Virus genome (UHGV): UHGV-0289455
Direction: 5' to 3' (one strand)
Length of the DNA: 35,338 bases
Source of the DNA: a virus
Part shown: piece after piece, positions 20,095 through 33,868 of the stretch
Numbering within the stretch: position 1 is the first letter of the stretch
Layout: the number at the start of each line of letters is the position of its first letter
Position numbers and translations under genes: made by a program
The notes under the pieces: generated by a model
Told to the model about the DNA's origin: nothing
Seen by the model: the letters and a program-made list of their open reading frames with translations, nothing else
Databases searched by the model: none

Positions 20095-21676
20095 GTGGTG
20101 TTGTCTCCTCTTCCGGCCTGCGACTCTCCGCTATCTGCTGCTGATACGCCTGCGCTATCCACACCGGACGTGAGAGTCCGGCTTTTTCCCGCTCTGCAGA
20201 TTCCCTGACCTGCTGGCGGAAAATGTCCTGATAATCCTCGCCCATCAGCGCCAGCTCTTTCTCATACGTGCTCAGTCCGGAATCAATACGCATCACCGAT
20301 TCCTGAACCTCCTTGAGCCCGTCAATGGCCATTCTTCCGGCACCAATCCACTCAGCCCGTGACCAGGCTGAACGCGCCTGATAAAAATCAAAACGTGCCC
20401 GTGGCGGACGAATAATCCCCCGAAGAAGTGCCTCTTCCAGCCAGCAGGAAAACATCTGCGTGGCCAGCCGGGACGCAATAAATTTTCGTCGTCCCATAAA
20501 ATAGCGCCACGACTCATTGGCGGAGGCGCGGGCACTTGAATAACTGACCTTCGAGTAATCACGGGACAACTGTTCGTAGGAAACACCAAGACCGGCGGCG
20601 ATATACCGCAGCAGCGCCTGTTCAAGCGCCGAAAATCCATTGTCTGAATCCTGCGCGGTCTGCAGTTTCAGATCATCACCAGGGAAAAGGTGCGGAATTT
20701 TGACACCGCCCAGCGTCACGTTATTCGTGTCATACCAGCTGGAGAACTTCTCCAGAATATTAATAAGCGGATTATCCTTCTGCCCCTGCGGCGCACCGGC
20801 GATATATTCAAAGGCCTTTTCGGTATCCAGTTCACTTTCAATTGTCGCTGCATACATCGCCTTGACAATGGCCGACTGAAGCTGTGTTGCCTGCAGGGAA
20901 TCGAGCATCTTCAGCCGTTCCATGACGCTGTAAAACTGGTTGGCCCCACGGGTCTGCCCGTCCTCCACCGGCTCGAAAATATGCAGCATGGCCGGACGCC
21001 CGGTGAGAAGTTCACGCGGGATCCGTTCCCATCGTCCACTCCCGGAGCGAGGAAAATCATCCTCACAGATATGGTACGCAACGGCACGACCATATCGATC
21101 GACCTCCACCCCGGCCCGCAGAAAACGGTTCCCGATACCATGTCCTGGCGTGTCCACCCGTTTCGGACTCACGGCTTTAAAACGCGTACGAAACAGTTGC
21201 GTGCTCTCCGTATCCCAGACCGGCTGCACAAAGATTTCGCCGTTAAACGCATGAACGCCCACACCTTCACGGATAAATTCCGTAAACGTGCGTTTCCCTT
21301 CCACGTCGATCTCACCAAACATCCCTTCTGCGTATTCTGACCAGGCCGCCTCCACCTCATCGACAAAACTTTTTGTCGCGGTCTCCCGCATCCCCAGCCA
21401 GCGCCAGTTCGGGCGGTAGCTGATAAGAAACATATGCCCGACAATGTGATCCTTATGCAGGGCCACCGCATTGGCCGCTATCCCGTTATTGCGCACCAGA
21501 TCATCTGCCCGGGCATTCCCCAGACGCAACGCGGGCAGCAGGGCCGCATCGGCACTCTGCGCCGGTGGCAACCACTCCGCCATTTGCCCGCCAAATCCTG
21601 CGCCGCCCCCGTTGTAGCTGAGGCTCTCCCGAAGCGGAACGCCGTTCACATCAATCAGGACAGGCGTTCGTTTCAT
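20084..21676 (-). CDS. B: portal protein B
   Basis: 530 aa, MKRTPVLIDVNGVPLRESLSYNGGGAGFGGQMAEWLPPAQSADAALLPALRLGNARADDLVRNNGIAANAV... essentially lambda gpB. Confidence 0.95.
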   Translation of the reverse strand: MKRTPVLIDVNGVPLRESLSYNGGGAGFGGQMAEWLPPAQSADAALLPALRLGNARADDLVRNNGIAANAVALHKDHIVGHMFLISYRPNWRWLGMRETATKSFVDEVEAAWSEYAEGMFGEIDVEGKRTFTEFIREGVGVHAFNGEIFVQPVWDTESTQLFRTRFKAVSPKRVDTPGHGIGNRFLRAGVEVDRYGRAVAYHICEDDFPRSGSGRWERIPRELLTGRPAMLHIFEPVEDGQTRGANQFYSVMERLKMLDSLQATQLQSAIVKAMYAATIESELDTEKAFEYIAGAPQGQKDNPLINILEKFSSWYDTNNVTLGGVKIPHLFPGDDLKLQTAQDSDNGFSALEQALLRYIAAGLGVSYEQLSRDYSKVSYSSARASANESWRYFMGRRKFIASRLATQMFSCWLEEALLRGIIRPPRARFDFYQARSAWSRAEWIGAGRMAIDGLKEVQESVMRIDSGLSTYEKELALMGEDYQDIFRQQVRESAEREKAGLSRPVWIAQAYQQQIAESRRPEEETTPRET

Positions 21677-21879
21677 AACCTCACTCCCAGCGGACGACGG
21701 CGACGGCGGGTTGTCCCCAGTACCGACTCAGCATCATTGATCGCACGGTTAAGCTCATCCAGAGAGGCCGCCGTATATTCAATTCTTCGTCCATCTTTCT
21801 GGACAGACACCACCCGTTTACCGGTTAATAAATCAAGGCGCGCCTGACGCAGCGCCTGCAGTTCAGCGACTGTAACCAT
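21673..21879 (-). CDS. W: head-tail joining protein W
   Basis: 68 aa, ...LLTGKRVVSVQKDGRRIEYTAASLDEL... matches lambda gpW. Confidence 0.9.
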   Translation of the reverse strand: MVTVAELQALRQARLDLLTGKRVVSVQKDGRRIEYTAASLDELNRAINDAESVLGTTRRRRRPLGVRL

Positions 21880-23791
21880 TCACTCCTCCGGACAGCTTCG
21901 CTGCCAGTTCTTTAAGGGTTGGCCGGGTCGTCTCTTCTTCCCGGGATTTTGCCAGTACAGCCAGATCAAGCTGCCAGCGTTGCACGGACACACGTAATGC
22001 CGCGTAGGCATACACCAGGCAGTCCAGCGCTTCGTTACGCCGCTTTTTGTTATCCCACAGCAGACGCATCTTTCCTTTTTCCCACTTCTCCACAAGCTCT
22101 TCCGCGACCAGTTGCTGCGCCTCTGTCTGCGAAAAAATCTCCGGATCATCAGGAAAACGGATGGCATACGACGTGGCTTCATCCGCAGGCGTGGGCTCGG
22201 CTTTCATACGGGCATAGAGAATTTCTTTTGCGGTGTCCGTCCCCACTTCACACAGATAAACGCCCCGCTGATTGCGGGTTTTCGGCATGGTGATCACCGG
22301 CTTGCCATAGACAGACGCGCCTTTTACCGGCAGCACACGGAAAACACCGTGTTTTTTTGACCTCTGGTAGACGATTTCACCATCGATCCCCCCGGTGTCC
22401 CAGCAGACACGGGAAATGGTCATTTCGGTGCCATCCGCATGGCGGTATTTTTTGTTGATCGCCGCATCCACACGTAACAGCGTCTCTTCCTCATCGGGAC
22501 GTCCCATAATGATGATTTTATCCACCAGAAAGGCTTCCTCTCCCGGAGCCCATCCCCAGACATACATCTCAAAACGGTTTCGCTGCGAGTCAATGCCCGC
22601 CGTCAGATAAACCACCCGGGCTGGCACCGCCGCCGTGTAATGCACGACCTTATCCATCAGTACCTGGTGATCGAGTTTTTCGCCCACGGCCTCTTCCCAG
22701 GTCTCGCCCAGCGTGGTGTTCACAAAGGTTTTCAGGCCGTTGGGATCTTTCAGTGCATCCAGCCAGTCATAGACTATCTGTACCCAGGTGGTGAACGGAC
22801 TGTACGCCGTCCAGATATGGAACGTGATGGAGCGCGGCGGCGGAATTTCATTATCCGCGGCGCTGAAAAACGTCAGACCGTCACGGGTCCACATCCACGT
22901 GTTTTCACAGATCCACCGCCCGTTGCTCTGGTCAAGCTCAGACTGATGGATCACGCAGCCATGATGTTCACAGAGGTAGAAAACGCTTTCGGGGCTGTCC
23001 TTCTCCCATTTAAGGCCAAAAGGCGTGGATTCATCGCCAAATTTCAGATACTGCTCCTCCCCACAGTGTGGGCAGGGCACATAAAAACGCATGAAATGCG
23101 CCGACTCGTTGGCCGCTTTTTCGATCTGGCAGGTGCCTTTGATTTTAGGCGTCGAGCCGCGAATGGATTTGGGCCATACAGAGCCCTCAATACGTTTATC
23201 CCCAAGCAGGGTTGGCGAACCCTCTTTTTCGACATCCGGTTCGAACGAGGAAAGTTCGTCATAGCAGACCACGTCCACGGATTTTTCACGGTAGTTTTTG
23301 GCGGCAGCGCCGCCCAGGCACCAGAAGCCCACACCCGATGAAAAGCGTTTCAGCGTGAGAGTATTGTCACGATGTTTACGCCCCAGCCATGGAGAAAGGT
23401 CTTTCAGACATGGCACATCCCGAATCGTCGCCTCCACGTGAGACTTCATAAAATCTTCAGCGGCAGAATCCGTGGGCTGAAAAAGCAGACTGTTTCGGGA
23501 TTTATGCTCAATAAAATACCCGACCACCCCCAGCAACATCTTTGTATAGCCAACACGGGCAGATTTAATCAGATTAACAGTCCGGATCTGATCATTCCCC
23601 ATGCTGTTCATGATGGCGATCTGGAACGGCAGCGTTTTCCATTCTCCCTCACCATATGAAGATTCTTTAGGCAGATAATAATTTTGATCAGCCCATTCAA
23701 CTGGCGTCACCGGCAATGCCCTTATCAGGGGCTGTAATGCTGTTGTGACAGCACTCATCATATTATTCAGTTGTTGCTCTGATATATTCAT
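21863..23791 (-). CDS. A: terminase large subunit A
   Basis: Start placed at MNISEQQL (ATG 23789-23791), the lambda-like N-terminus; ...VEWADQNYYLPKESSYGEGEWKTLPFQIAIMNSMG... and the rest are lambda gpA-like. The tracked ORF is 19 codons longer. Confidence 0.93.
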   Translation of the reverse strand: MNISEQQLNNMMSAVTTALQPLIRALPVTPVEWADQNYYLPKESSYGEGEWKTLPFQIAIMNSMGNDQIRTVNLIKSARVGYTKMLLGVVGYFIEHKSRNSLLFQPTDSAAEDFMKSHVEATIRDVPCLKDLSPWLGRKHRDNTLTLKRFSSGVGFWCLGGAAAKNYREKSVDVVCYDELSSFEPDVEKEGSPTLLGDKRIEGSVWPKSIRGSTPKIKGTCQIEKAANESAHFMRFYVPCPHCGEEQYLKFGDESTPFGLKWEKDSPESVFYLCEHHGCVIHQSELDQSNGRWICENTWMWTRDGLTFFSAADNEIPPPRSITFHIWTAYSPFTTWVQIVYDWLDALKDPNGLKTFVNTTLGETWEEAVGEKLDHQVLMDKVVHYTAAVPARVVYLTAGIDSQRNRFEMYVWGWAPGEEAFLVDKIIIMGRPDEEETLLRVDAAINKKYRHADGTEMTISRVCWDTGGIDGEIVYQRSKKHGVFRVLPVKGASVYGKPVITMPKTRNQRGVYLCEVGTDTAKEILYARMKAEPTPADEATSYAIRFPDDPEIFSQTEAQQLVAEELVEKWEKGKMRLLWDNKKRRNEALDCLVYAYAALRVSVQRWQLDLAVLAKSREEETTRPTLKELAAKLSGGVNGYSR

Positions 23792-24928: not shown

Positions 24929-25108
24929 ATGGTTAGTAAAAGCAAGGCGCATTGCCGCCGCATGCTGCAGGCATTGCAACAGACGAGAGCAGGTATTTTT
25001 GACCAGTTGGAAAACTGCCAGCATACTTTGCCCGAGTATATCGCCATCTCATCGGAAACCAGTGCAACTCTTATTCATCGGGTTCCACCAGAGAAAAAGA
25101 AGAAATGA
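24929..25108 (+). CDS. small hypothetical protein (59 aa)
   Basis: ATG preceded by an AGGAAGGA Shine-Dalgarno; followed by a hairpin terminator at 25112-25145. Confidence 0.35.
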   Translation: MVSKSKAHCRRMLQALQQTRAGIFDQLENCQHTLPEYIAISSETSATLIHRVPPEKKKK

Positions 25109-25111
25109 ACA

Positions 25112-25145
25112 GTGAGGCGTTGTGTGGCATACAACGCCTTCTTCC
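25112..25145. terminator. bidirectional rho-independent terminator between convergent genes
   Basis: Stem aggcgttgt/acaacgcct with T-rich runs on both sides. Confidence 0.45.
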
Positions 25146-25230
25146 ATCATTCCTCGTCAGCCATGACAAAAATATAACCGCTGGCTCTTTCATTTTTCTC
25201 CTGCGTCCAGCCCCTCTCTACCTGGAAGCA

Positions 25231-25557
25231 TCAAGGACGTGACGGCGTAAAGATAAATTGTCTCTTCACTCCCTGACAGGGGCGATTCTTTTCAAATCGC
25301 CATTTCGCCATGGCCTTCACCACTTCATCACGAAACAAATTATGAGGCTCTGAGCGGAGAAAAACGATCCGTGTCACAGTCCCATCAGCACCAATATCGA
25401 ACTTAACCTCAACCAGCCCCTTGATATAATTTGCTGCAGCATATTCCGGATATCGTGGATACACCGTCACTAATTGCCGGGGCTCATCAGCTTTTTGCTG
25501 CGAGCATCCCACTGCCAGGACAGATAACAGAAAAAGTAGTAAAAGGCGTCTTTTCAT
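25231..25557 (-). CDS. small lipoprotein consisting of a TonB C-terminal-like domain
   Basis: Start taken at MKRRLLLLFLLSVLAVGCSQQ (lipobox-like AVG-C). The rest (YPRYPEYAAANYIKGLVEVKFDIGADGTVTRIVFLRSEPHNLFRDEVVKAMAKWRFE) aligns by eye with the C-terminal domain of E. coli TonB. Confidence 0.6.
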   Translation of the reverse strand: MKRRLLLLFLLSVLAVGCSQQKADEPRQLVTVYPRYPEYAAANYIKGLVEVKFDIGADGTVTRIVFLRSEPHNLFRDEVVKAMAKWRFEKNRPCQGVKRQFIFTPSRP

Positions 25558-25867
25558 TTTTATTCCTACGGGTCTTATTCTGACAATATATCCTGTGTTC
25601 CAGACTGCCACATCACCACATCCTGTGCCATTATCTGACTCACATTACATACATCGCATCGGGATACAGTAGTAGCACTTTCTGTAATACAGCTTCCTGT
25701 TTCTTCCACCATCGCACCGGGATAAACCCGCGAATCATTAACGCGGTAAAAACCCGGTGTGCATCGTTTTTAATTATCCCCGCACACTCGCGCAGAGGAG
25801 TCTCCCTGTCGGGCTGCGGTCTCTGTTAATGAGGGAATATAGCGACGATACGGCGCATCAACAAAAC

Positions 25868-26341
25868 TTATTTCAGGCACTGAGTGCGGATATAGTCCTG
25901 TGCCCCTTCCAGTTGCTTGTGCATCGTCATCAGCCGCTCTCTGAGGGTGAAATAATCCCGTGTAACGGTGTCTGCCAGTTGGGGGCCGGTTGCATTATCC
26001 ACGCCGGAGGTGGTGGGGGCTTCACGCACGGAGCCTGGACAGGTGGCGTTGATCCGCAGGCGCTTACGACCAGCGGCAACGTCAGCGCGAAGAGTTTCAT
26101 TTTCAGCTCTCGCATCGGCTAATTCCCTCGAGTATTTTGCATCGAGCGCAGCAACATCGCGCTGGCGCACCTGCATATCAGTAATGGTTGCGTTCGCCAG
26201 CTTCAGTTCACTGGCTTTGTTATCGCGCTGCGCTTTGTAGGTAATCGCGTTATCACGGTAATGGTCTGTTGCCATCCACAGCGCACCACAGGCCACCAGC
26301 AGAATAACGATAAACGCGGAAAGCATTCGGTTTATGTTCAC
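25868..26341 (-). CDS. Rz: i-spanin Rz
   Basis: 157 aa, N-terminal TM then ...[59 protein letters not shown]...[24 protein letters not shown] matches lambda Rz. Confidence 0.92.
25930..26115 (-). CDS. Rz1: o-spanin Rz1 (lipoprotein, embedded in Rz in the +1 frame)
   Basis: [22 protein letters not shown]...[30 protein letters not shown] matches lambda Rz1. Confidence 0.9.
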
Positions 26342-26469
26342 CCCAGCAACCCCGACGAAGACAACATCATCCAGGCCATGGAAAGAAAAAGAGCAACCAG
26401 CATTAGTGAAAATGAAATGCCGACAATTACACAGAGGATCTTCGCCAGCGTTATGAGTTTGTCTGACAT
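26338..26469 (-). CDS. 43-aa single-pass membrane protein between R and Rz
   Basis: ATG preceded by a strong Shine-Dalgarno (AGGGAGGA, 6-nt spacer); stop overlaps the Rz start. One hydrophobic helix ([26 protein letters not shown]). Confidence 0.45.
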
Positions 26470-26483
26470 GCTTAATCCTCCCT

Positions 26484-26666
26484 TCACGATTTCAACGCAA
26501 TGACCAGTTTTGCCAGCCCATACAGCATCGGGGACACAGCAACACCGACCGCCACCCACTTAATGGCAAAAGCCAGTGCTCTGCTGATGTCATCAGTTAC
26601 AGGCGCTTTCAGTTCAAGGCCATTTTTCATAGTCAACCTCAACAGAATTCGTTTACACTTCGCCAT
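26484..26666 (-). CDS. 60-aa protein with C-terminal hydrophobic helix between R and Rz
   Basis: ATG at 26664-26666 preceded by GGGAG; [60 protein letters not shown]. Confidence 0.4.
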
Positions 26667-26822
26667 GTTCTCCCTTGCCTTACTCAAGGTCAGAAACACA
26701 AAACCTCGCTTGGTGCCAACAAACGGGTTTTTTACTTTTATTCACTTACGTTTCGCCAGTTCGCAGGATTTCGTGTTATCCGCCCGCGTGGCCATTCCTC
26801 ATTTTTCAGCAAAATATTCTGC

Positions 26823-27356
26823 TTATCTGTCGATACCCCAGCACGCCAGCGCGCTCTCCTGGTCACGACGGGATACCTGACCGTAACAGTTGTTTGAACG
26901 AATACGGCAGTCTCTGCCACCGTCCTTAATCCACCAGCGAATCGCTTCGCAGGCACCTTTTCGATCACCAGCATTAATTCGTCTGTAAAACGTCGACGGG
27001 AAACACTTACCGGGACCAATGTTGTACGGACAGAATGACGCGATCCCCGCTTTCTGGGGTTCGGTCAGCGGCACTCTGATGTTTTTCTCCACCCACGCCA
27101 GCGCTTTATCACGCTCAATGGCGTTAACCTGGTCGCATTTTTCCTTCGACAACTTCATGCCCGGAACGACAGGTTTGCCATCCACCATGATGGCACCACG
27201 GCAGATGGTCCAGATACCTGCACCATCACGGTATGCCGTGGTGTGGTTGCCTTCCTTTTCATCCAGAAACTGGTCGAGAATGTCAGGCGCAGGCGCACCA
27301 GCGGCAATCAGCGCCAGAACGGCAGCCGACAGGCCGTATTTGATTTTGGTGTTCAT
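26823..27356 (-). CDS. R: SAR endolysin (phage-21 R-like lysozyme with N-terminal signal-arrest-release segment)
   Basis: 177 aa; N-terminal weakly hydrophobic Ala/Gly-rich segment (YGLSAAVLALIAAGAPAP), then a lysozyme-like E...D...GIWT.C.G pattern. Confidence 0.8.
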   Translation of the reverse strand: MNTKIKYGLSAAVLALIAAGAPAPDILDQFLDEKEGNHTTAYRDGAGIWTICRGAIMVDGKPVVPGMKLSKEKCDQVNAIERDKALAWVEKNIRVPLTEPQKAGIASFCPYNIGPGKCFPSTFYRRINAGDRKGACEAIRWWIKDGGRDCRIRSNNCYGQVSRRDQESALACWGIDR

Positions 27357-27392
27357 GGATATATTAAATATTCAGCCGCTGTCCCTGGCCCA

Positions 27393-28283
27393 CTAAATAC
27401 GCACTTTAAGATAAGTCAGCCCCGGATGAAGCCAGTAAGCCGGCACTTTTTTAAAGGGTGGAGTATTAAAATCACGAAGAAGAGCCTCCCGCACAATTGC
27501 ATCCTTATCAGCACCACTGGCCAGCGCTTCAATCTCAGCGGCTACCTGAAGATATCCCATGCAACGGCCAACGCGCTTCATCAGCCCCTGCTTTTTATTG
27601 TTCTTCAGGTAATCAATGGCAAATTCAATGAGCTCCTCACTGTGCTGGTGCGATGGAGGTGTTACTTTCCCATTTTCTGAGATGGTTATTTTCCCAGCAT
27701 CACCGGATACAACAAAGGATGGCCGGTTACACTCCCATTCCGGGTCACTGAAATTATCATTATGAATACTGAAACACTCTGCGAGATTTCTGCTCATCAC
27801 TTTCCGACAATAATCGTCAAACGCAGCAAACTGCTTTTCATCGCCAGAAGGCACCAATATCGACCATTTCTTATTCAGCTCAACGACGTAGCTCTCCAGT
27901 TTTTCAATACGTGATTCAACATCATCTTTTTCTGACCGCAGTGTTGACGGCGGCATCTTCAGAGAACAAGTAATTCTTCCCGGTAGCTTTCCTTTGTAGG
28001 TTATCAACACATCCTGCGCCTCTAAAATTACGGGGCGCTTTTCCGGCAACGGTTCGTTCCATTCACATAACCCGGCAGCAACATCCATGAAAAACTGCTT
28101 CGCCTGCTTTTTCGCCTCAGCTTCGTAAAACTCCAGCGTGGCACCTTCAGTACGGTCAAGACTAATCGCCACATCTGGCAACAACAGCGACGCTTGCCCG
28201 TCACCTTCCGACTTCACAGTAACAGTAACCTTATCCCCGTAATTATTTATCCCCTTAACAACCAGTTCATATTTTTTATTCAT
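27393..28283 (-). CDS. 296-aa soluble protein of unknown function inserted between holin and endolysin
   Basis: ATG at 28281-28283, 4 nt after the holin stop, with a GGGGAGAG Shine-Dalgarno inside the holin 3' end. No signal peptide, TM segment or motif I recognise; GC appears lower than in neighbouring genes. Confidence 0.6.
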   Translation of the reverse strand: MNKKYELVVKGINNYGDKVTVTVKSEGDGQASLLLPDVAISLDRTEGATLEFYEAEAKKQAKQFFMDVAAGLCEWNEPLPEKRPVILEAQDVLITYKGKLPGRITCSLKMPPSTLRSEKDDVESRIEKLESYVVELNKKWSILVPSGDEKQFAAFDDYCRKVMSRNLAECFSIHNDNFSDPEWECNRPSFVVSGDAGKITISENGKVTPPSHQHSEELIEFAIDYLKNNKKQGLMKRVGRCMGYLQVAAEIEALASGADKDAIVREALLRDFNTPPFKKVPAYWLHPGLTYLKVRI

Positions 28284-28287
28284 CACT

Positions 28288-28503
28288 TTACTCTCCCCGC
28301 GCCGCCTTACGCCGGTCCTCTTTGATTTTGAAATACAGGTTAGTCAGGTACGTCAGCAGCCCAAACAGCAGACTCCCCAGCACGCCTATTGCCGCCCACT
28401 GAGACGGGGAAACCCTGTCCAGCAACTGCAGGAACCAGTAGCCCGTTCCCACCGCTGACGTGGTGTATGACACACCTGTTGTGATTTTTTCCATCTGGTA
28501 CAT
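28288..28503 (-). CDS. S: pinholin S (phage-21 S-like, dual-start motif M-Y-Q-M)
   Basis: [71 protein letters not shown] matches S21 as recalled (71 aa). GGGAGA Shine-Dalgarno upstream. Confidence 0.85.
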
Positions 28504-28579
28504 ACCCCGTCTCCCGTTATCCGGAAGCTCACAACAATATAAAGACCACCGGCACACACCGATGGTCCCTTGCGCAGGC

Positions 28580-28825
28580 TTACATCATCATGTCGCTGTC
28601 AGGTGTGGGTTCACCGCCATCTGAAGCACTCCCGTCACCCGCGATACCTTCCGGCTCCGGAACCGCTGGTACGCCCAGCAGCTCATCCAGAATGGCATCC
28701 ACTTCTGCATCAAGACGCGACTCAAGGTTCTGGCGGAGTTTCTGTTTCAGTGCGCTCAGGACTTCTTCAGAGCGCAGGACTTCCTTCACTGCCTCAGCAG
28801 TGACCAGGGATGTGATTTCTGACAT
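28580..28825 (-). CDS. 81-aa acidic hypothetical protein upstream of the holin
   Basis: Internal ATG of the tracked 139-aa ORF chosen (MSEITSLV...); very acidic C-terminus; weak ribosome-binding site. Confidence 0.35.
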
Positions 28826-28862
28826 GGGATTTTCTCGTTGAAAGGTGTTGTCAAGAAAGTGA

Positions 28863-29045
28863 CTACGGAATGAGCGGATCTTCGGGTTTGCTTCCGGCTG
28901 ACTGACTGGCGCTGATTCTCTCAGCGGCCCTTTTATCAATCTGCCTGCGCCAGAAATCGCGCACTGCCCTGTACCCACCCGAAAGAAGATACATAACACA
29001 GACTGCCATACAGAAGTACAGCATTACCTGATGAATAAATGTCAT
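28863..29045 (-). CDS. 60-aa small membrane protein
   Basis: ATG start, one hydrophobic helix (VMLYFCMAVCVMYLLSGG) then a basic tail; weak ribosome-binding site. Confidence 0.3.
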   Translation of the reverse strand: MTFIHQVMLYFCMAVCVMYLLSGGYRAVRDFWRRQIDKRAAERISASQSAGSKPEDPLIP

Positions 29046-29063
29046 AATTTCTTACCGTTATGG

Positions 29064-29180
29064 TTGACAATGAGAACTGTTTTCATTTAGAAATGATTGA
29101 TGTCGAAAACATCTTTTCTTTACATTCTCCATTGGGATTACCTCCGCCAGCTTCCATTCCTGCCGCTGGCGGCTTTTTTT
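29064..29180 (+). ncRNA. candidate opposite-strand transcription unit (TTGACA -35, weak -10, terminator) in the nanS-p 3' intergenic region
   Basis: Perfect TTGACA at 29064-29069; a 7-bp stem (cgccagc/gctggcg) plus TTTTTTT at 29145-29180 on the plus strand. No convincing ORF. Confidence 0.2.
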
Positions 29181-29181
29181 A

Positions 29182-31158
29182 TCATGCCGCGATGTCCGCG
29201 TTGTTCACTTCCACCTTCACACTGTCAATCAGCAGCGTATATGTCGCCGCCTTTGATATGCCTGTCAGTTGCAGTTTGTCCGCCGCCCCTGATGCCGGAG
29301 ATTTCACCAGTGTGAACGGCGTCCCCCGTTTCTCATCCAGTACCGGCGTCACCTGAATGCTGTTGTTTCCGGCAAACTCAAAAGCCAGTGTGTGCCATCC
29401 GTTATCAAAGACCCCGAACGTTTCCAGCTTCGCATTCGGCTTCTTGTGGTGCATCGCGTTCAGGTTCGTCGCATCCGTCTGCAGAAAGAAGGACATCAGC
29501 ATGTCGTTGCCTTCCTCTGCCAGCGTCACTCCCTCCGGCAGGGACGACAACTGCCAGTAAATGCCCAGGGCAAACTGATTCGGCACCAGTGAACCCGGCA
29601 ACTTAAACCGTACGCTCACACGTCCCCCCTTCTTCAGTAACTCCACTCCCTGTCCGGCTGCATCATGCTCCAGAAACCAGATGTGGTTTTCCGGTTTATT
29701 CAGTTGCAGGGCCTTACCTCCCGTAGCCCCCGCATCACTGACCACCGCTTCAGCAATGTTTTTGTTAACATTGTCTCCGCTCGCCGGTTTGTGATAATAG
29801 CGCCAGCCCTGTGATGCCAGGTCTTCGCCGGACGCCAGCAGACTCATCAGGGTTCGGTTACTGACCGGGGCTTCCGGCTCTCTCTCCGTACCTTCACCGG
29901 AAGGTCCGGTGGGCTTCACCGTATCAGGCTGTTTTCCGGTAATGAATTCAGCGTTTCTCCCGGCATGCACAAGAATCGCCGTTGCCAGACGGTCGGAAAT
30001 AATCCCACGACGTGCCCATGATCCAAAATGCGTTTTACGGTCAGCCGTCGTCCAGGTTTTGGCGTCCGTTCGACCACCGGCTCCGTAATACCCAATATCC
30101 GCAACATCCGGATCTTCTGACGGCTCGTTGGTACCCACATTTCGCCCGTTTTCATCCGTCATAAACGGCACAAAGAAGATTTTTTTTGCGGATTTCGTCT
30201 TGTATGCACCATACACCGCATCGTATTGCGAAGAATAAGTCTGCTTCCAGTAGTAGGTCGTGTCGCCACAAATCCAGGGAACCGATGACGGAGAGCCCCC
30301 GAGACACTGACCTCCGAATTCCGACAGGTCAGAACGATATTTTTCCACCATGGAATCAAACAGCCCCGGCTGGGTGGCGTATGCACCCTGTTTCAAATCA
30401 AACTCGCCCTGCATCCAGACCACTGCAAGCAGAATATTTTTAGGGTTGGCCTTCAGTGCGGCCTGAGTACGGGTAAGCAGGTCCTTGTACAGTGGCTTAT
30501 CTACACCCCAGCGTGCCGAGGTCTCGCTTGCGCCGGTGGATTCGCTGAAGGTACCTTCATCGCCCGCCAAAAATGCAGAACCACCACGGCAGCACGGAAC
30601 CAGAAGAATACCGGCATTCGCCGGAATAAACGGCAACAATTTCTTCGCGATATGTAATCCCTGCCCCACGCATCCATACTGAGCTGCACTGGCTTTCGGG
30701 TGTGAAAACTTACTCAAATCCTGAACATCATGCAGGCAGTGGTCCGCAGGAATAATGTCATTGTAGTTACAGAACGCACCACCCGGCGTGACAGTGCTGC
30801 GACGCGCCAGCTGTTTAATACGCGGGTCCGGACGGTCATATGTCTCCGGCAGCGGAAGCCCTTCACCATACGCCATACCGTTTGACTGCCCGGCCAGGGC
30901 AACAACAAAGTAATACTCCGGGTTGCTGGTGGTGCTGATAACTGCGCCTTCTCCATCCGACGGCTTCACCACCACAGGTGTGGTGACATCACCTTCCGCC
31001 GCAATGGCCTGCATCAGGGTATAAGGCGTGATGGCCACCGGACTGCCAAATGGCTGCCACCCCTCCTTCAGTTTTTGTGTCAGTCGTTTCGCAAGGTCTG
31101 ACGGCGATGCCGCCCTGACAACATCATAGTGTTTAAATGCCATGGTTCTTTCCACCAT
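29182..31158 (-). CDS. nanS-p: prophage-encoded sialate O-acetylesterase NanS-p (DUF1737 N-domain, SGNH/SASA esterase domain, C-terminal carbohydrate-binding region)
   Basis: 658 aa. N-terminus MAFKHYDVVRAASPSDLAKRLTQKLKEGWQPFGSPVA is the DUF1737 signature, followed by VVALAGQSNGMAYGEG (SGNH GQSN motif). Sits between the Q/tRNA region and the holin, as in Stx-phage-like prophages. Confidence 0.85.
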   Translation of the reverse strand: MVERTMAFKHYDVVRAASPSDLAKRLTQKLKEGWQPFGSPVAITPYTLMQAIAAEGDVTTPVVVKPSDGEGAVISTTSNPEYYFVVALAGQSNGMAYGEGLPLPETYDRPDPRIKQLARRSTVTPGGAFCNYNDIIPADHCLHDVQDLSKFSHPKASAAQYGCVGQGLHIAKKLLPFIPANAGILLVPCCRGGSAFLAGDEGTFSESTGASETSARWGVDKPLYKDLLTRTQAALKANPKNILLAVVWMQGEFDLKQGAYATQPGLFDSMVEKYRSDLSEFGGQCLGGSPSSVPWICGDTTYYWKQTYSSQYDAVYGAYKTKSAKKIFFVPFMTDENGRNVGTNEPSEDPDVADIGYYGAGGRTDAKTWTTADRKTHFGSWARRGIISDRLATAILVHAGRNAEFITGKQPDTVKPTGPSGEGTEREPEAPVSNRTLMSLLASGEDLASQGWRYYHKPASGDNVNKNIAEAVVSDAGATGGKALQLNKPENHIWFLEHDAAGQGVELLKKGGRVSVRFKLPGSLVPNQFALGIYWQLSSLPEGVTLAEEGNDMLMSFFLQTDATNLNAMHHKKPNAKLETFGVFDNGWHTLAFEFAGNNSIQVTPVLDEKRGTPFTLVKSPASGAADKLQLTGISKAATYTLLIDSVKVEVNNADIAA

Positions 31159-31403
31159 CTGAAAAATAATTCTTTAAAATACCTGACATGTAATACAGAA
31201 AAAACACAAAACCATACCTTAAATAAAAACCTCATCATCAAGCAGATATGCATGGATAAACTACAAGACGAGATATAAACCACCCTGCATTTAAATAAAC
31301 AATAAACAACATCAGAAAAATAATTCTGCTCTATGGTTTACATTCAAAAATATCATTTATACTTTTCAGAACATCACCAGCAAGACATAAACAAGGAGAC
31401 TAA

Positions 31404-31739
31404 ATGAAGTGGATTGTGATTGATACAGTTATCCAACCATCATGCGGAATATCTTTTTCAGTCATATGGAGTAAAATAAAATTAATAATCTGGTATCAAT
31501 CGGATGCTTTCTTACCTCCTGAAAGTATATTTACACTGACTCACACAGGTATCATGCTCAATAACAAAGTGCTACCTGTAACCATTTACAACGTAGCACC
31601 ATTCAATAAAACATTCTGGAATTTAATCAAAAACAGCCAGGAATGTCCTACAAATACAGATAACGTATTGAATGAATGCTTTAATAACCGTTGCACTCTG
31701 CAAATATGTCCTTATGGACTAAAACAACAAAGTCCATAA
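31404..31739 (+). CDS. hypothetical protein encoded on an AT-rich moron, opposite to the late operon
   Basis: 111-aa ORF with a canonical AAGGAG Shine-Dalgarno 7 nt upstream; the surrounding segment (about 31160-31760) is conspicuously AT-rich; GC-rich hairpin at 31781-31803 downstream. Cysteine-rich C-terminal part. Confidence 0.5.
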
Positions 31740-32186
31740 GGAGTTTACTCACATCTGACAAAATCAATATAAACAGCCCCTCCGGAGAGGGGCTGGAGAG
31801 TGGCGCTATGTGCCATTGCATGGTGCCGGGTGCCTCCCGGTGAATTCAGTACCAGCACCTGAATCCGCGATTATCCCATATACCTACTCGCTGATTGCCC
31901 CTCCGCACAGGGGGATTCACCATGCCAGTTTCTTTTAACAAACTCCCCGCAAACCAGACAACAGTCAACCGCCTGAATTGTGAAGTATTTAAAAATTTCT
32001 CCCGCTAACTGATACCCGGCTAACAGTCTGGCGTTTTCTTTTTCAGCAACGGGAAAGCAACAACCACCACACCCGCCACCAGCACACCGTCAGCCAGCAC
32101 TGACATTATCCGGCTGCTGCAATGCCACTCACAAAAACAGTAAGCAATCACTTTTTACCGTAACAAGTGATAATCCAGATATGTAT

Positions 32187-32540
32187 CTACCCCAGATGAG
32201 TAATCCGAAGTTCATCCATACCACAGGTACTGGCTATTCTGTTGTACTCCTGAACAAGAGCAAATAATTCTGAATTAGCAACCATGAACTCATCGCAAAC
32301 CCTCTGTATAGCATCACTATTCAGAATAATAACGTCTCTTCCCGAAAGACGATCAGGAGTACAGAACAAAACTGTCAAACGGCTGAAGGCCTTTGCTCGT
32401 CCTGCATTGACTATATCAATACGCTGCCTAAGGATGAAACACCCCGACGCCTCATCAATATTCACTCTACCCACACCATATGAATGATAAATATTTAATG
32501 CTGAAAAAACCATTAGACCGTATAACAAACACTCAATCAA
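32187..32540 (-). CDS. hypothetical protein in the stx-equivalent slot (weak call)
   Basis: 117-aa ORF starting with TTG (first ATG at codon 10), no convincing Shine-Dalgarno; low GC. Confidence 0.25.
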   Translation of the reverse strand: MIECLLYGLMVFSALNIYHSYGVGRVNIDEASGCFILRQRIDIVNAGRAKAFSRLTVLFCTPDRLSGRDVIILNSDAIQRVCDEFMVANSELFALVQEYNRIASTCGMDELRITHLG

Positions 32541-32653
32541 TACTTAACAGAACTTTTATTTTTGACAAACATAAAATATTTTCAACAATATCCTGAGCCA
32601 GGTATATTTCAGTATAAGGCTCTGCCGGAAGGAATCTGGAAGAATGAATATAG

Positions 32654-32727
32654 CGCGCTGTACTGGATTCGAACCAGTGACCGATTGCTTAGAAGGCAAT
32701 TGCTCTGTCCGGCTGAGCTAACAACGC
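32654..32727 (-). tRNA. tRNA-Arg (anticodon UCU)
   Basis: Minus strand GCGTTGTTAGCTCAGCCGGACAGAGCAATTGCCTTCTAAGCAATCGGTCACTGGTTCGAATCCAGTACAGCGCG: cloverleaf with a GTTCGAATC T-loop and a TCT anticodon loop; CCA not encoded. Confidence 0.85.
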
Positions 32728-32827
32728 TGAATACCGATAATGGACCGCCATCGGGGACCCGCCCCCGCACCAACAACCCTGTTATCGTGTCGTCTGCTCT
32801 TCCTGATAAGCTAATGGCGGTTTGTGA

Positions 32828-32903
32828 TGGTGGCCCTTGCTGGATTTGAACCAGCGACCTGGCGATTATGAGTCGCTCGCTCTCACCACTGAGCTAAAGG
32901 GCC
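32828..32903 (-). tRNA. tRNA with CAU anticodon (tRNA-Ile2/Met type, ileZ-like of Stx-phage tRNA clusters)
   Basis: Minus strand GGCCCTTTAGCTCAGTGGTGAGAGCGAGCGACTCATAATCGCCAGGTCGCTGGTTCAAATCCAGCAAGGGCCACCA, with encoded CCA; resembles E. coli ileX as recalled. Confidence 0.85.
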
Positions 32904-32942
32904 GGGAGCAGAATAATAACGGTCCGTAATTAATTCCGCAAT

Positions 32943-32964
32943 AAAAAACCCGCTCGGCGGCGGG
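32943..32964 (-). terminator. tR'-like rho-independent terminator downstream of pR'
   Basis: Minus strand: stem cccgc/gcggg followed by TTTTTTATT. Confidence 0.6.
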
Positions 32965-33013
32965 TTGTAGAAACTCTTCTAACGTCAGGCATAAAAAGCC
33001 CATTGTTATGACG

Positions 33014-33041
33014 AATTTACCACAGATTCCGGAAAAATCAA
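33014..33041 (-). promoter_or_regulatory. late promoter pR' (TTGATT, 16-bp spacer, TAAATT) immediately after Q
   Basis: Minus strand ...TTGATTtttccggaatctgtggTAAATT...; lambda pR' has TTGACT/TAAATT as I recall. Lies 0-30 nt downstream of the Q stop. Confidence 0.6.
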
Positions 33042-33046
33042 CCTTG

Positions 33047-33868
33047 TTACCTAGTTACCTTTTTTAACTGCCGCTCAGCCCATGCTTCTTCAATATCAAA
33101 CCGGGTCACCAGCGCATCATAGAATTTCTTAACTGTTTTTTCCCATGACGCGCGTGTTATCTGGTTTGTCACCTCGCATATAGCATTAAATGCCTCCGTT
33201 GATGGTAGTCTTTCATAGCCACGACCACCACAACGCTGGCAGTCTCTGATAACAGGCATACCACGTTTTACCGACTCTTCACGATGAATGGCGACACCAC
33301 GCCCACGGCAATCCTTACAGGCGGTGGAAACCTCACCCTTTCCGCCACACTCCGGACAGGCAACTTTTACCACCTCCCTGACTTTTTTCCATTCTTCCCA
33401 GTAAGACGAATACACACCTTTCGTACACTTTGCCCATACCGGCGGCTTACCATCCGGATACTGGACCTTGTTTGTAAAAACTACGCTTTCAATAAATTTT
33501 TCCCCATAGCAACAAGGGCACTGCTTTTTACTCGCTGCGCTGCGGGCATAATCCTCAAAAGCGTACGAAGCCATAATGCGCATCACTACCGGTTTTATTT
33601 CTGCCGGAAGTTTTCTCAACGCCGCCACACGATCGCACCGACTGAGTGCATAATCTGCCAGTAATTCTGTTGCCCGCGCCCTGTCATTCATACTGATGCC
33701 CATTTTCCCCAGGAACGCAGAAAAACCCATCTCAGCCCGATTCTGTGTCATGCCCTGCGCGGCCATCACATCAGTGATACTCAGCGCATCTTTTGACGTT
33801 GAGGCCGATGCATCGGTCAGGCCAGGGGATTTTGGGGAGTAGTATTTCGGTAAATCTTCCAGTTTCAT
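33047..33868 (-). CDS. Q: late antiterminator Q (zinc-finger Q family, QuuQ-like)
   Basis: 273 aa with four CxxC pairs (CPCC, CPEC...CKDC, CQRC); located immediately upstream of pR' and the tRNAs. Confidence 0.7.
   Translation of the reverse strand: MKLEDLPKYYSPKSPGLTDASASTSKDALSITDVMAAQGMTQNRAEMGFSAFLGKMGISMNDRARATELLADYALSRCDRVAALRKLPAEIKPVVMRIMASYAFEDYARSAASKKQCPCCYGEKFIESVVFTNKVQYPDGKPPVWAKCTKGVYSSYWEEWKKVREVVKVACPECGGKGEVSTACKDCRGRGVAIHREESVKRGMPVIRDCQRCGGRGYERLPSTEAFNAICEVTNQITRASWEKTVKKFYDALVTRFDIEEAWAERQLKKVTR

Follow-up and report, generated by a model that had tools for sequence, protein, structure and literature searches.

The DNA considered here, all 35,338 nucleotides (nt) of the UHGV virus genome UHGV-0289455 (henceforth the window), is an Escherichia coli lambdoid prophage resembling the Shiga-toxin (Stx)-type phages. 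At issue are two small open reading frames (ORFs) of its lysis cassette, ORF60 and ORF43, named for their lengths in codons, which lie in that order in the 481 bp between the endolysin gene R and the spanin gene Rz. In lambda and P21, Rz comes directly after R, and consistent with this being the usual arrangement, rrrQ overlaps rzpQ in the Qin prophage of E. coli K-12, with no small ORFs between them. A first-pass annotation of the window, made from the sequence alone, had singled out two ORFs of 43 and 60 residues in a gap of about 480 bp, each with a strong Shine-Dalgarno (SD) sequence, and both observations are borne out by the coordinates, profile matches and SD motifs given below. The insertion is not peculiar to this phage: 990 of 5426 complete E. 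coli genomes carry at least 80% of a 531-bp region of this junction, in which RefSeq annotates two hypothetical proteins.

The two small genes and their products

Comparison with homologous loci indicates that ORF60 and ORF43 are genuine small genes that encode conserved peptides. What places them beyond chance is their matches to PHROG families, the retention of length and start, and the excess of synonymous over non-synonymous changes. ORF60 matches phrog_1115 over its full length (residues 1-60; expect value, E, 3.7e-42), with 4493 and 3246 as related PHROGs, and ORF43 likewise matches phrog_4906 (residues 1-43; E 2.1e-23); all four families are labelled "unknown function". The SD of ORF60, AAGGGAG (26670-26676), stands 3 nt from the ATG, and that of ORF43, AAGGGAGGA (26476-26484), stands 6 nt from the ATG and begins within the stop codon of ORF60. 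Conservation across related cassettes, which the first-pass annotation had set as a check, is evident from the fetched loci, which number several hundred when duplicates and many near-identical sequences are counted: nearly all copies retain start and length (60, 50, 43 or 49 codons). Pairwise comparison of divergent copies by the Nei-Gojobori method gives ratios of non-synonymous to synonymous rates (dN/dS) of 0.15-0.38 for ORF60 (in the window versus Salmonella, 21.5 synonymous and 16.5 non-synonymous differences, Fisher p 8e-7) and of 0.22-0.50 for ORF43 (p 2e-4 to 0.05).

These ratios are uninformative on the coding strand, since equally low values are obtained for one antisense frame, the one that shares its third codon positions with the sense frame. 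The strand call rests on the conservation of SD and start, the fixed position of the stop and the orientation of the operon. That the ORFs are chance frames, or that the true gene is a 126-residue ORF on the plus strand (26500-26880), is very improbable. The plus-strand ORF does stay open across ORF60 in several relatives, and its dN/dS is similarly low (0.2-0.3) on account of the coinciding codon positions. However, ORF60 has one Tyr codon and no His or Gln codons, which leaves few possible antisense stops and hence an open frame; the ends of the antisense ORF vary between relatives (80, 108, 126 and 198 residues); and no SD is seen ahead of its ATG. The sense ORFs, in contrast, retain start, SD, length and stop and run in the direction of the operon, and a homolog of ORF43 has a Ribo-seq call on the sense strand (see below). 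It was on composition, variable ends and the missing SD that the antisense ORF was rejected as a real gene and coding assigned to the minus strand. Long antisense ORFs are open in relatives opposite both ORF60 (26500-26880, plus strand) and ORF43 (26261-26503, plus strand), with low dN/dS that stems only from the coinciding third codon positions, so that overlapping genes could easily be called here in error.

The two families are unrelated to each other (hhalign profile-profile probability 1%) and, as judged from profile searches, neither belongs to a characterised lysis or defence family. Scans of both ORFs with Pfam, NCBIfam and PADLOC returned nothing usable, the sole match being DUF3930 to ORF43 at E 0.08, under the family cut-off, and Rfam recovered no relevant family in 25000-29200. 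Among 5.8 billion proteins searched, ORF60 is represented by 122 clusters from E. coli, Escherichia marmotae and Salmonella and ORF43 by 129 clusters from E. coli only, all of them named "hypothetical". The ORF60 family is narrow: when its profile was run against 1.84 billion cluster representatives, 21 matched at E up to 1e-3, with no distant annotated relative emerging, and a scan of genome contigs with the ORF60 alignment gave no confirmed locus. The ORF sequences are already in the databases as hypothetical proteins, and one homolog has been flagged by Ribo-seq; their bare existence is not new. As K-12 Qin is without these genes, they are missing from the K-12 small-protein literature.

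The first-pass annotation had credited each product with one hydrophobic helix, a description that suits ORF43 well and ORF60 poorly. ORF43 is a single-pass peptide, the best 19-mer of which has a summed Hessa free-energy score (dG) of -3.8, more hydrophobic than the transmembrane domain (TMD) of Rz (-2.35). The helix is flanked by a short, polar N-terminus (MSDK) and a Ser/Gly tail of 7-10 residues; the net charge is +1, and the one Cys lies inside the TMD, with no lipobox. Among alleles as low as 67% in identity, 12 of the 43 positions are invariant, and a strongly hydrophobic helix is present in every allele. ORF60 is cationic, with a net charge of +7 over 60 residues. Its AlphaFold2 model, built on a 15-sequence alignment, has a helix at 2-14, a KNG..AP loop and a long helix at 23-59; the mean predicted local distance difference test score is 73, reaching about 85 in the long helix, so that the two helices are predicted with moderate confidence overall. 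The N-terminal helix is basic, and the long C-terminal helix, weakly hydrophobic, is followed by just 2 residues. One face of it (read by eye) bears small residues and two lysines (A32, K36, A39, A43, P46, G50, K53, A57). The single Cys is at position 4, again with no lipobox. Since the best 19-mer scores +4.0, close to the signal-anchor-release (SAR) domain of R (+5.6), insertion of ORF60 into the membrane would be marginal or dynamic, and the label "membrane ORF" is not secure.

Homologs of ORF43, all full length, occur in 276 phage records, mostly of Shiga-toxin phages, and are unannotated in 933W (AF125520.1 27438-27566, directly upstream of Rz), phi24B, Min27 and several other Stx-phage records. 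The Sakai/Stx allele has ATA in place of the canonical ATG and starts at an ATG one codon or further upstream. One homolog, XECs191 of O157:H7 Sakai (1945984-1946130), has been listed among novel intergenic genes on the strength of RNA-seq and RIBOseq data, with 30.0 reads per kilobase per million (RPKM) in RNA-seq and 12.6 RPKM in RIBOseq at a coverage of 0.55 in an uninduced LB culture, and its product is predicted to lie in the inner membrane with one transmembrane helix (Hücker et al. 2017, PLoS One, PMC5597208). XECs191 is identical to the BP-4795 sequence and 67% identical to ORF43 over 43 residues, and is thus a direct homolog; the paper gives it no function and its main text is silent on XECs191 and on prophages, the link to Rz and the lysis cassette being drawn in the present analysis.

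Table 1. Features of the late region of the window, in order of transcription
Feature	Coordinates	Strand	Family match or remark
Antiterminator Q	33047-33868	-	Pfam Antiterm, E 6.3e-55
SASA-type esterase	29182-31158	-	
S21-type class II (pin)holin, 71 aa	28288-28503	-	PHROG holin families, E 1.8e-40
DUF1327 gene, 297 aa	27393-28286	-	
R, SAR-type phage lysozyme (endolysin)	26823-27356	-	Pfam Phage_lysozyme, E 2.4e-24; weakly hydrophobic N-terminal segment
Terminator-like hairpin	26694-26733	-	Conserved in ORF60-family relatives
ORF60, 60 codons, ATG start	26484-26666	-	phrog_1115
ORF43, 43 codons, ATG start	26338-26469	-	phrog_4906
Rz i-spanin, GTG start at 26341	25868-26341	-	Pfam Phage_lysis, E 2e-47
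Rz1 o-spanin lipoprotein, embedded in Rz	25930-26115	-	Pfam Rz1, E 4.4e-20
TonB_C-domain lipoprotein	25231-25557	-	Pfam TonB_C, E 1.1e-12

Genomic contexts and the upstream hairpin

ORF60 and ORF43 are independent, separately mobile modules. The arrangement of the window, R-ORF60-ORF43-Rz, is found in all but two of 80 IMG/VR loci with ORF60, the two having ORF43 missing or in an extra copy. Phages PhiR12_1 and PhiR5_2 have both ORFs as well. Salmonella prophages have R-ORF60-Rz, with no ORF43, and the Stx phages (BP-4795, 933W and all 80 IMG/VR loci of this type) have R-ant-ORF43-Rz, with no ORF60; in these, ORF43 lies between ant and Rz in 80/80 loci, one of which is cut before Rz. A sister subfamily of ORF60, ORF50b (phrog_4493; an example from phage GER2 is MRKYKRFFLRLSIMKGIEVETPASLDLTRAAAFAIRIVAIAVLVWAIRWW), lies directly after the endolysin gene in 79 of 80 IMG/VR loci, the remaining locus being cut upstream. 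The preceding enzyme belongs to one of three unrelated types: a SAR lysozyme (53/80), normally with Rz as the next gene, an M15 peptidase (13/80) or a GH108 enzyme (14/80). In the M15 and GH108 cassettes the gene after ORF50b encodes lipo60, a 60-residue lipoprotein (phrog_7528, function unknown). A further permutation is seen in E. coli WP3-W18-ESBL-07 (L003 2600-3160), where the slot holds the hairpin described below, about 170 bp of extra sequence and three small hydrophobic ORFs in a row, namely ORF43, a 40-residue ORF60 core that begins at a GTGA overlap with ORF43, and a 28-residue ORF50b core that ends TGATATG into Rz; sequence matches suggest that ST131 and O104:H4 strains may share this arrangement.

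When stretches of 150-200 nt taken from upstream of ORF60-family genes in seven contexts (R, GH108, M15, GER2, Salmonella and two tail-fibre loci) are aligned, the sole shared element is a terminator-like hairpin. It lies 25-45 nt ahead of the start codon and is built of an A-tract, a GC-rich stem and a T-tract, and 3 of its 10 pairs show compensatory changes. It is seen in loci L004 (at about 2490-2530), L012, L013, L006, L008 and L010. In the window, the A-tract (26728-26733) is followed by the stem CCCGTTTG/CAAGCG(A)GG and the T-tract, about 30 nt upstream of the ORF60 start; the stem is weakened by two mismatches, and a simple scan places the hairpin at 26725-26707. In 933W, homology with the 3' flank of R ends exactly at the hairpin, which indicates that the mobile ORF60-family module has its 5' edge there and that the hairpin does not belong to R. 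A terminator at the front of a gene, rather than at its end, is unusual.

The late genes of the window all lie on the minus strand, in the order Q, tRNA-Met/tRNA-Arg, SASA-type esterase, DUF826 gene, S21-type holin, DUF1327 gene, R, Rz/Rz1, TonB_C lipoprotein and terminase Nu1 and A, and a consensus scan of this strand in 25100-28700 found no sigma-70 match. The upstream hairpin, the lack of a promoter consensus and the unbroken single-strand run from Q to terminase suggest that the two ORFs are read only by the Q-modified polymerase; hence, they are probably Q-dependent late genes and not exclusion genes expressed in the lysogen. An exclusion role, one of the functions that the first-pass annotation had considered, appears less likely on these grounds and on the lack of PADLOC matches for ORF60, ORF43 or ORF50b at E up to 1. 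As regards a moron, a crude scan of 25100-28700 found no promoter consensus of its own, and the hairpin lies upstream and not downstream of the gene; the homolog gives a low RNA-seq and Ribo-seq signal in uninduced culture. As for type I toxin-antitoxin systems, an Rfam search at E up to 1 recovered nothing within or close to either ORF, and a crude scan showed no promoter-like site on the opposite strand nearby.

These contexts bear on a different explanation, namely that the ORFs are unrelated cargo (a small toxin, a blocker of injection or an exclusion factor, or some other accessory) riding in permissive junctions of the late operon, their proximity to lysis genes reflecting where recombination joints are tolerated. 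We regard this as somewhat unlikely. It is favoured by the shuffling of the modules (R-ORF60-Rz in Salmonella, R-ant-ORF43-Rz in Stx phages and the swapped, truncated order of L003), by the presence of other genes in the same places (ant in the R-Rz slot of Stx phages, DUF1327 or YdfR at the S-R junction) and by the sharp 5' boundary of the module at the hairpin. Moreover, homologs of the ORF60 core with different N-termini follow tail-fibre or tail-fibre-assembly genes at prophage ends, far from lysis genes, in Salmonella prophages and one metagenome contig (L010 3805-4168, as tandem paralogs; L008 4001-4201; L331 3501-3689), with the hairpin preceding them in L008 and L010. On the other hand, expression in the lysogen, which exclusion requires, is not expected with a terminator-like hairpin upstream and no promoter consensus; no PADLOC match was obtained; neither an antisense RNA family nor an opposite-strand promoter match, which a type I toxin would need, was found near the ORFs; and ORF50b lies directly after endolysins of three unrelated types in 79 of 80 loci.

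A second set of loci raises the question of the outer membrane. In 29 fetched loci of the M15/GH108-ORF50b-lipo60 type (27 of them from the 80-locus IMG/VR scan), no Rz or Rz1 was detected, as judged by similarity to Rz and lambda Rz/Rz1 and by a lipobox regular expression only, and lipo60 is the only recurrent lipoprotein candidate on the same strand. The gene order in such cassettes is holin, holin, GH108 or M15 endolysin, ORF50b and lipo60 (e.g., L154 2541-4331 and phiSTEC1575-Stx2k 20829-22647), and in the complete phage phiSTEC1575-Stx2k neither annotation nor tblastn reveals an Rz or Rz1. These phages are possibly spanin-less, with a small cationic peptide and a mini-lipoprotein in the spanin slot.

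It could accordingly be supposed that ORF60/ORF50b is a peptide of the outer membrane or of final rupture, similar to a disruptin and sometimes acting with lipo60, that backs up or replaces Rz/Rz1. The disruptin gp28 of phiKT is a helical, membrane-associated peptide of 56 residues and charge +7, hydrophilic and without a membrane segment, from a phage that lacks spanins (bioRxiv 10.1101/515445). By description, ORF60 resembles it in size, charge and predicted helicity (60 residues, +7, two predicted helices), as ORF43 with its charge of +1 does not, and the 29 loci and phiSTEC1575-Stx2k also speak for the idea. Nevertheless, we consider the idea improbable: unlike gp28, ORF60 has a hydrophobic helix of 30 residues; intact Rz and Rz1 adjoin it in the window and coexist with the family in most loci; lipo60 is found downstream of Rz in other loci too; the absence of spanins depends on the similarity and lipobox tests just described; and a literature search found nothing on whether phiSTEC1575-Stx2k lyses normally. 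A two-component spanin made of an ORF60-type protein and lipo60 was also considered and rejected, as ORF60-type proteins are without a periplasmic domain. Equally doubtful is a broader proposal, in which the endolysin-to-spanin slot of enterobacterial lambdoid phages would encode a new class of lysis peptides. Here, ORF60/ORF50b and lipo60 would breach the outer membrane where Rz/Rz1 are lacking, either as a membrane-anchored disruptin or as a miniature two-part system, and ORF43 would be a dedicated membrane partner or regulator of Rz that, being present in essentially all Stx-type loci sampled, could influence Shiga-toxin release.

Coupling to Rz and candidate roles in lysis

The TGA of ORF43 (26338-26340) overlaps a GTG (26339-26341) in the sequence GTGA. 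Read from this GTG, Rz begins MNINRML.... In related cassettes Rz has the N-terminus MNRVL..., with which this aligns, and the GTG is thus the likely Rz start. The first-pass proposal that the downstream ORF is translationally coupled to Rz is therefore sound: ribosomes ending ORF43 can restart on Rz. Comparably tight junctions occur elsewhere. In the Stx-type loci, ORF43 and Rz are joined as TGA, 7 nt, ATG, and ORF50b runs into either Rz or lipo60 through TGG TGG TGA N ATG. The conserved ending RWW-stop (TGG TGG TGA) may at the same time serve as a signal for ribosome binding or restart.

Such junctions invite the view that the ORFs are coupling leaders, whose translation itself loads ribosomes onto an Rz (or lipo60) with a poor SD, the peptide being largely incidental; the need would have arisen once inserted DNA and a terminator broke the ancestral R-Rz overlap, of the kind still present in Qin. 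The window junction, GGGGTGA, with its embedded GTG start and no obvious SD before the alternative ATG of Rz, is as expected of a leader, as are the tight junctions of the Stx-type and ORF50b loci, the truncated ORF60 core of L003, whose own start lies in a GTGA overlap with ORF43, and the occurrence of Rz after ORF43 in every complete Stx-type locus. However, the peptides are constrained (the invariant ORF43 positions and dN/dS below 0.5), each ORF43 allele retains a strongly hydrophobic helix, 43-60 codons are more than a leader requires, and ORF60 in the window is uncoupled to Rz, its next gene being ORF43 with a strong SD of its own. We therefore consider it unlikely that coupling is their main role.

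The reading we favour, at a probability of roughly 0.45, is that ORF60 and ORF43 are accessory lysis factors of the inner membrane, which would tune the timing or efficiency of the last steps of envelope disruption. Both would be transcribed along with S, R and Rz by the late polymerase antiterminated by Q. ORF43 would insert as an N-in single-pass helix near the holin and the N-terminal helix of Rz. ORF60 would join the inner membrane through its SAR-like, weakly hydrophobic C-terminal helix, leaving the basic N-terminal 30 residues in the cytoplasm. The step on which they act could be holin triggering, release of the SAR endolysin or spanin action. This reading is preferred because of the post-endolysin position kept across three unrelated endolysin types, the apparently late-only expression, and the precedents of Mu gp25 and LambdaSo Lcc6.

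Small inner-membrane proteins of the lysis cassette that set lysis timing are well known in the form of the antiholins (S21-71, lambda S107, P2 LysA and P1 LydB). Of these, S107 and S21-71 arise by alternative starts within the holin gene itself; LysA is a protein with four TMDs. ORF60 and ORF43 differ from these in having no match to holin or antiholin families in searches of Pfam, NCBIfam and PHROGs that extended to E 1, and the holin of the cassette is a separate gene. One precedent is Lcc6 of the Shewanella phage LambdaSo, a single-TM protein of 65 residues that is neither holin nor spanin, is required for lysis and works at the holin level (bioRxiv 10.1101/2024.01.23.576932). LambdaSo shares with the phage of the window its lambdoid type and its pinholin/SAR-endolysin/Rz-Rz1 system, but the gene for Lcc6 is distant from the lysis cassette, close to xis, and the protein has an N-terminal TMD and a cytoplasmic tail of 43 residues. 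Compared by description, ORF43 has almost no extramembrane part, and the domain order of ORF60 is the opposite of that of Lcc6. The releasin gp25 of Mu (DUF2730) is membrane-tethered, is encoded within a few genes of the SAR endolysin and aids the exit of the SAR domain from the membrane (PMC9239132). It differs in its 99 residues, its N-out TMD and its acidic cytoplasmic domain of 73 residues, and the phage of the window has a pinholin of its own; neither ORF matches DUF2730, and both their lengths (43 and 60 residues) and their architecture are different. Nor do the ORFs resemble spanins. An i-spanin has an N-terminal TMD and a periplasmic coiled coil of about 100 residues, whereas ORF43 has about 7-10 residues past its TMD and the helix of ORF60 is C-terminal; neither matches Phage_lysis, DUF2514 or another spanin family in Pfam, and neither has the lipobox Cys of an o- or u-spanin.

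Several points weigh against an accessory lysis role. Pfam and NCBIfam show no homology of either ORF to families of holins, antiholins, spanins or releasins. They are not core lysis genes, as K-12 Qin is organised without them and lambda lyses without them. The homologs of the ORF60 core in tail-fibre contexts lie far from lysis genes, and a metagenomic contig (L332 325-740) has two tandem small ORFs ending AAIRWW, the second of which is coupled to a non-lysis gene. The Ribo-seq evidence for XECs191 amounts to 12.6 RPKM at a coverage of 0.55, a low signal obtained without induction, the promoter scan was a crude consensus search, and one antisense frame shows dN/dS as low as that of the genes themselves.

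Lysis by lambdoid phages is usually described as requiring a holin, an endolysin and a spanin; Mu gp25, LambdaSo Lcc6 and phiKT gp28 show that further small proteins can be essential. ORF43 precedes Rz in all Stx-type loci sampled, and the lysis of such phages releases toxin. ORF60/ORF50b, for its part, sits in some phages together with a small lipoprotein where spanins appear to be missing. If the peptides are inert, the ORFs still document a hot spot of small hydrophobic genes chained by stop/start coupling. A literature search for genes between R and Rz returned nothing useful, and a comparative genomics paper on Stx phages is silent on small ORFs. So far as our searches show, the link between ORF43 and Rz across Stx-type phages, the ORF60/ORF50b family with its hairpin, the tie of this family to three endolysin types and the lipo60 cassettes without detected Rz/Rz1 are new.

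Neighbouring late genes

The region 31159-33046 (minus strand), which corresponds to the stx site of BP-4795, holds just a 117-residue ORF (32187-32540) with no Pfam match; no stx gene was noticed there, though no search aimed at stx was made. The S-R junction is also a variable slot, occupied by the DUF1327 protein of 297 residues in the window and by shorter DUF1327 or YdfR genes in relatives. Downstream of Rz, the TonB_C lipoprotein occupies the site of bor in lambda and 933W. PHROG 1267 labels the family of this lipoprotein "Rz-like spanin", an apparent mislabel.

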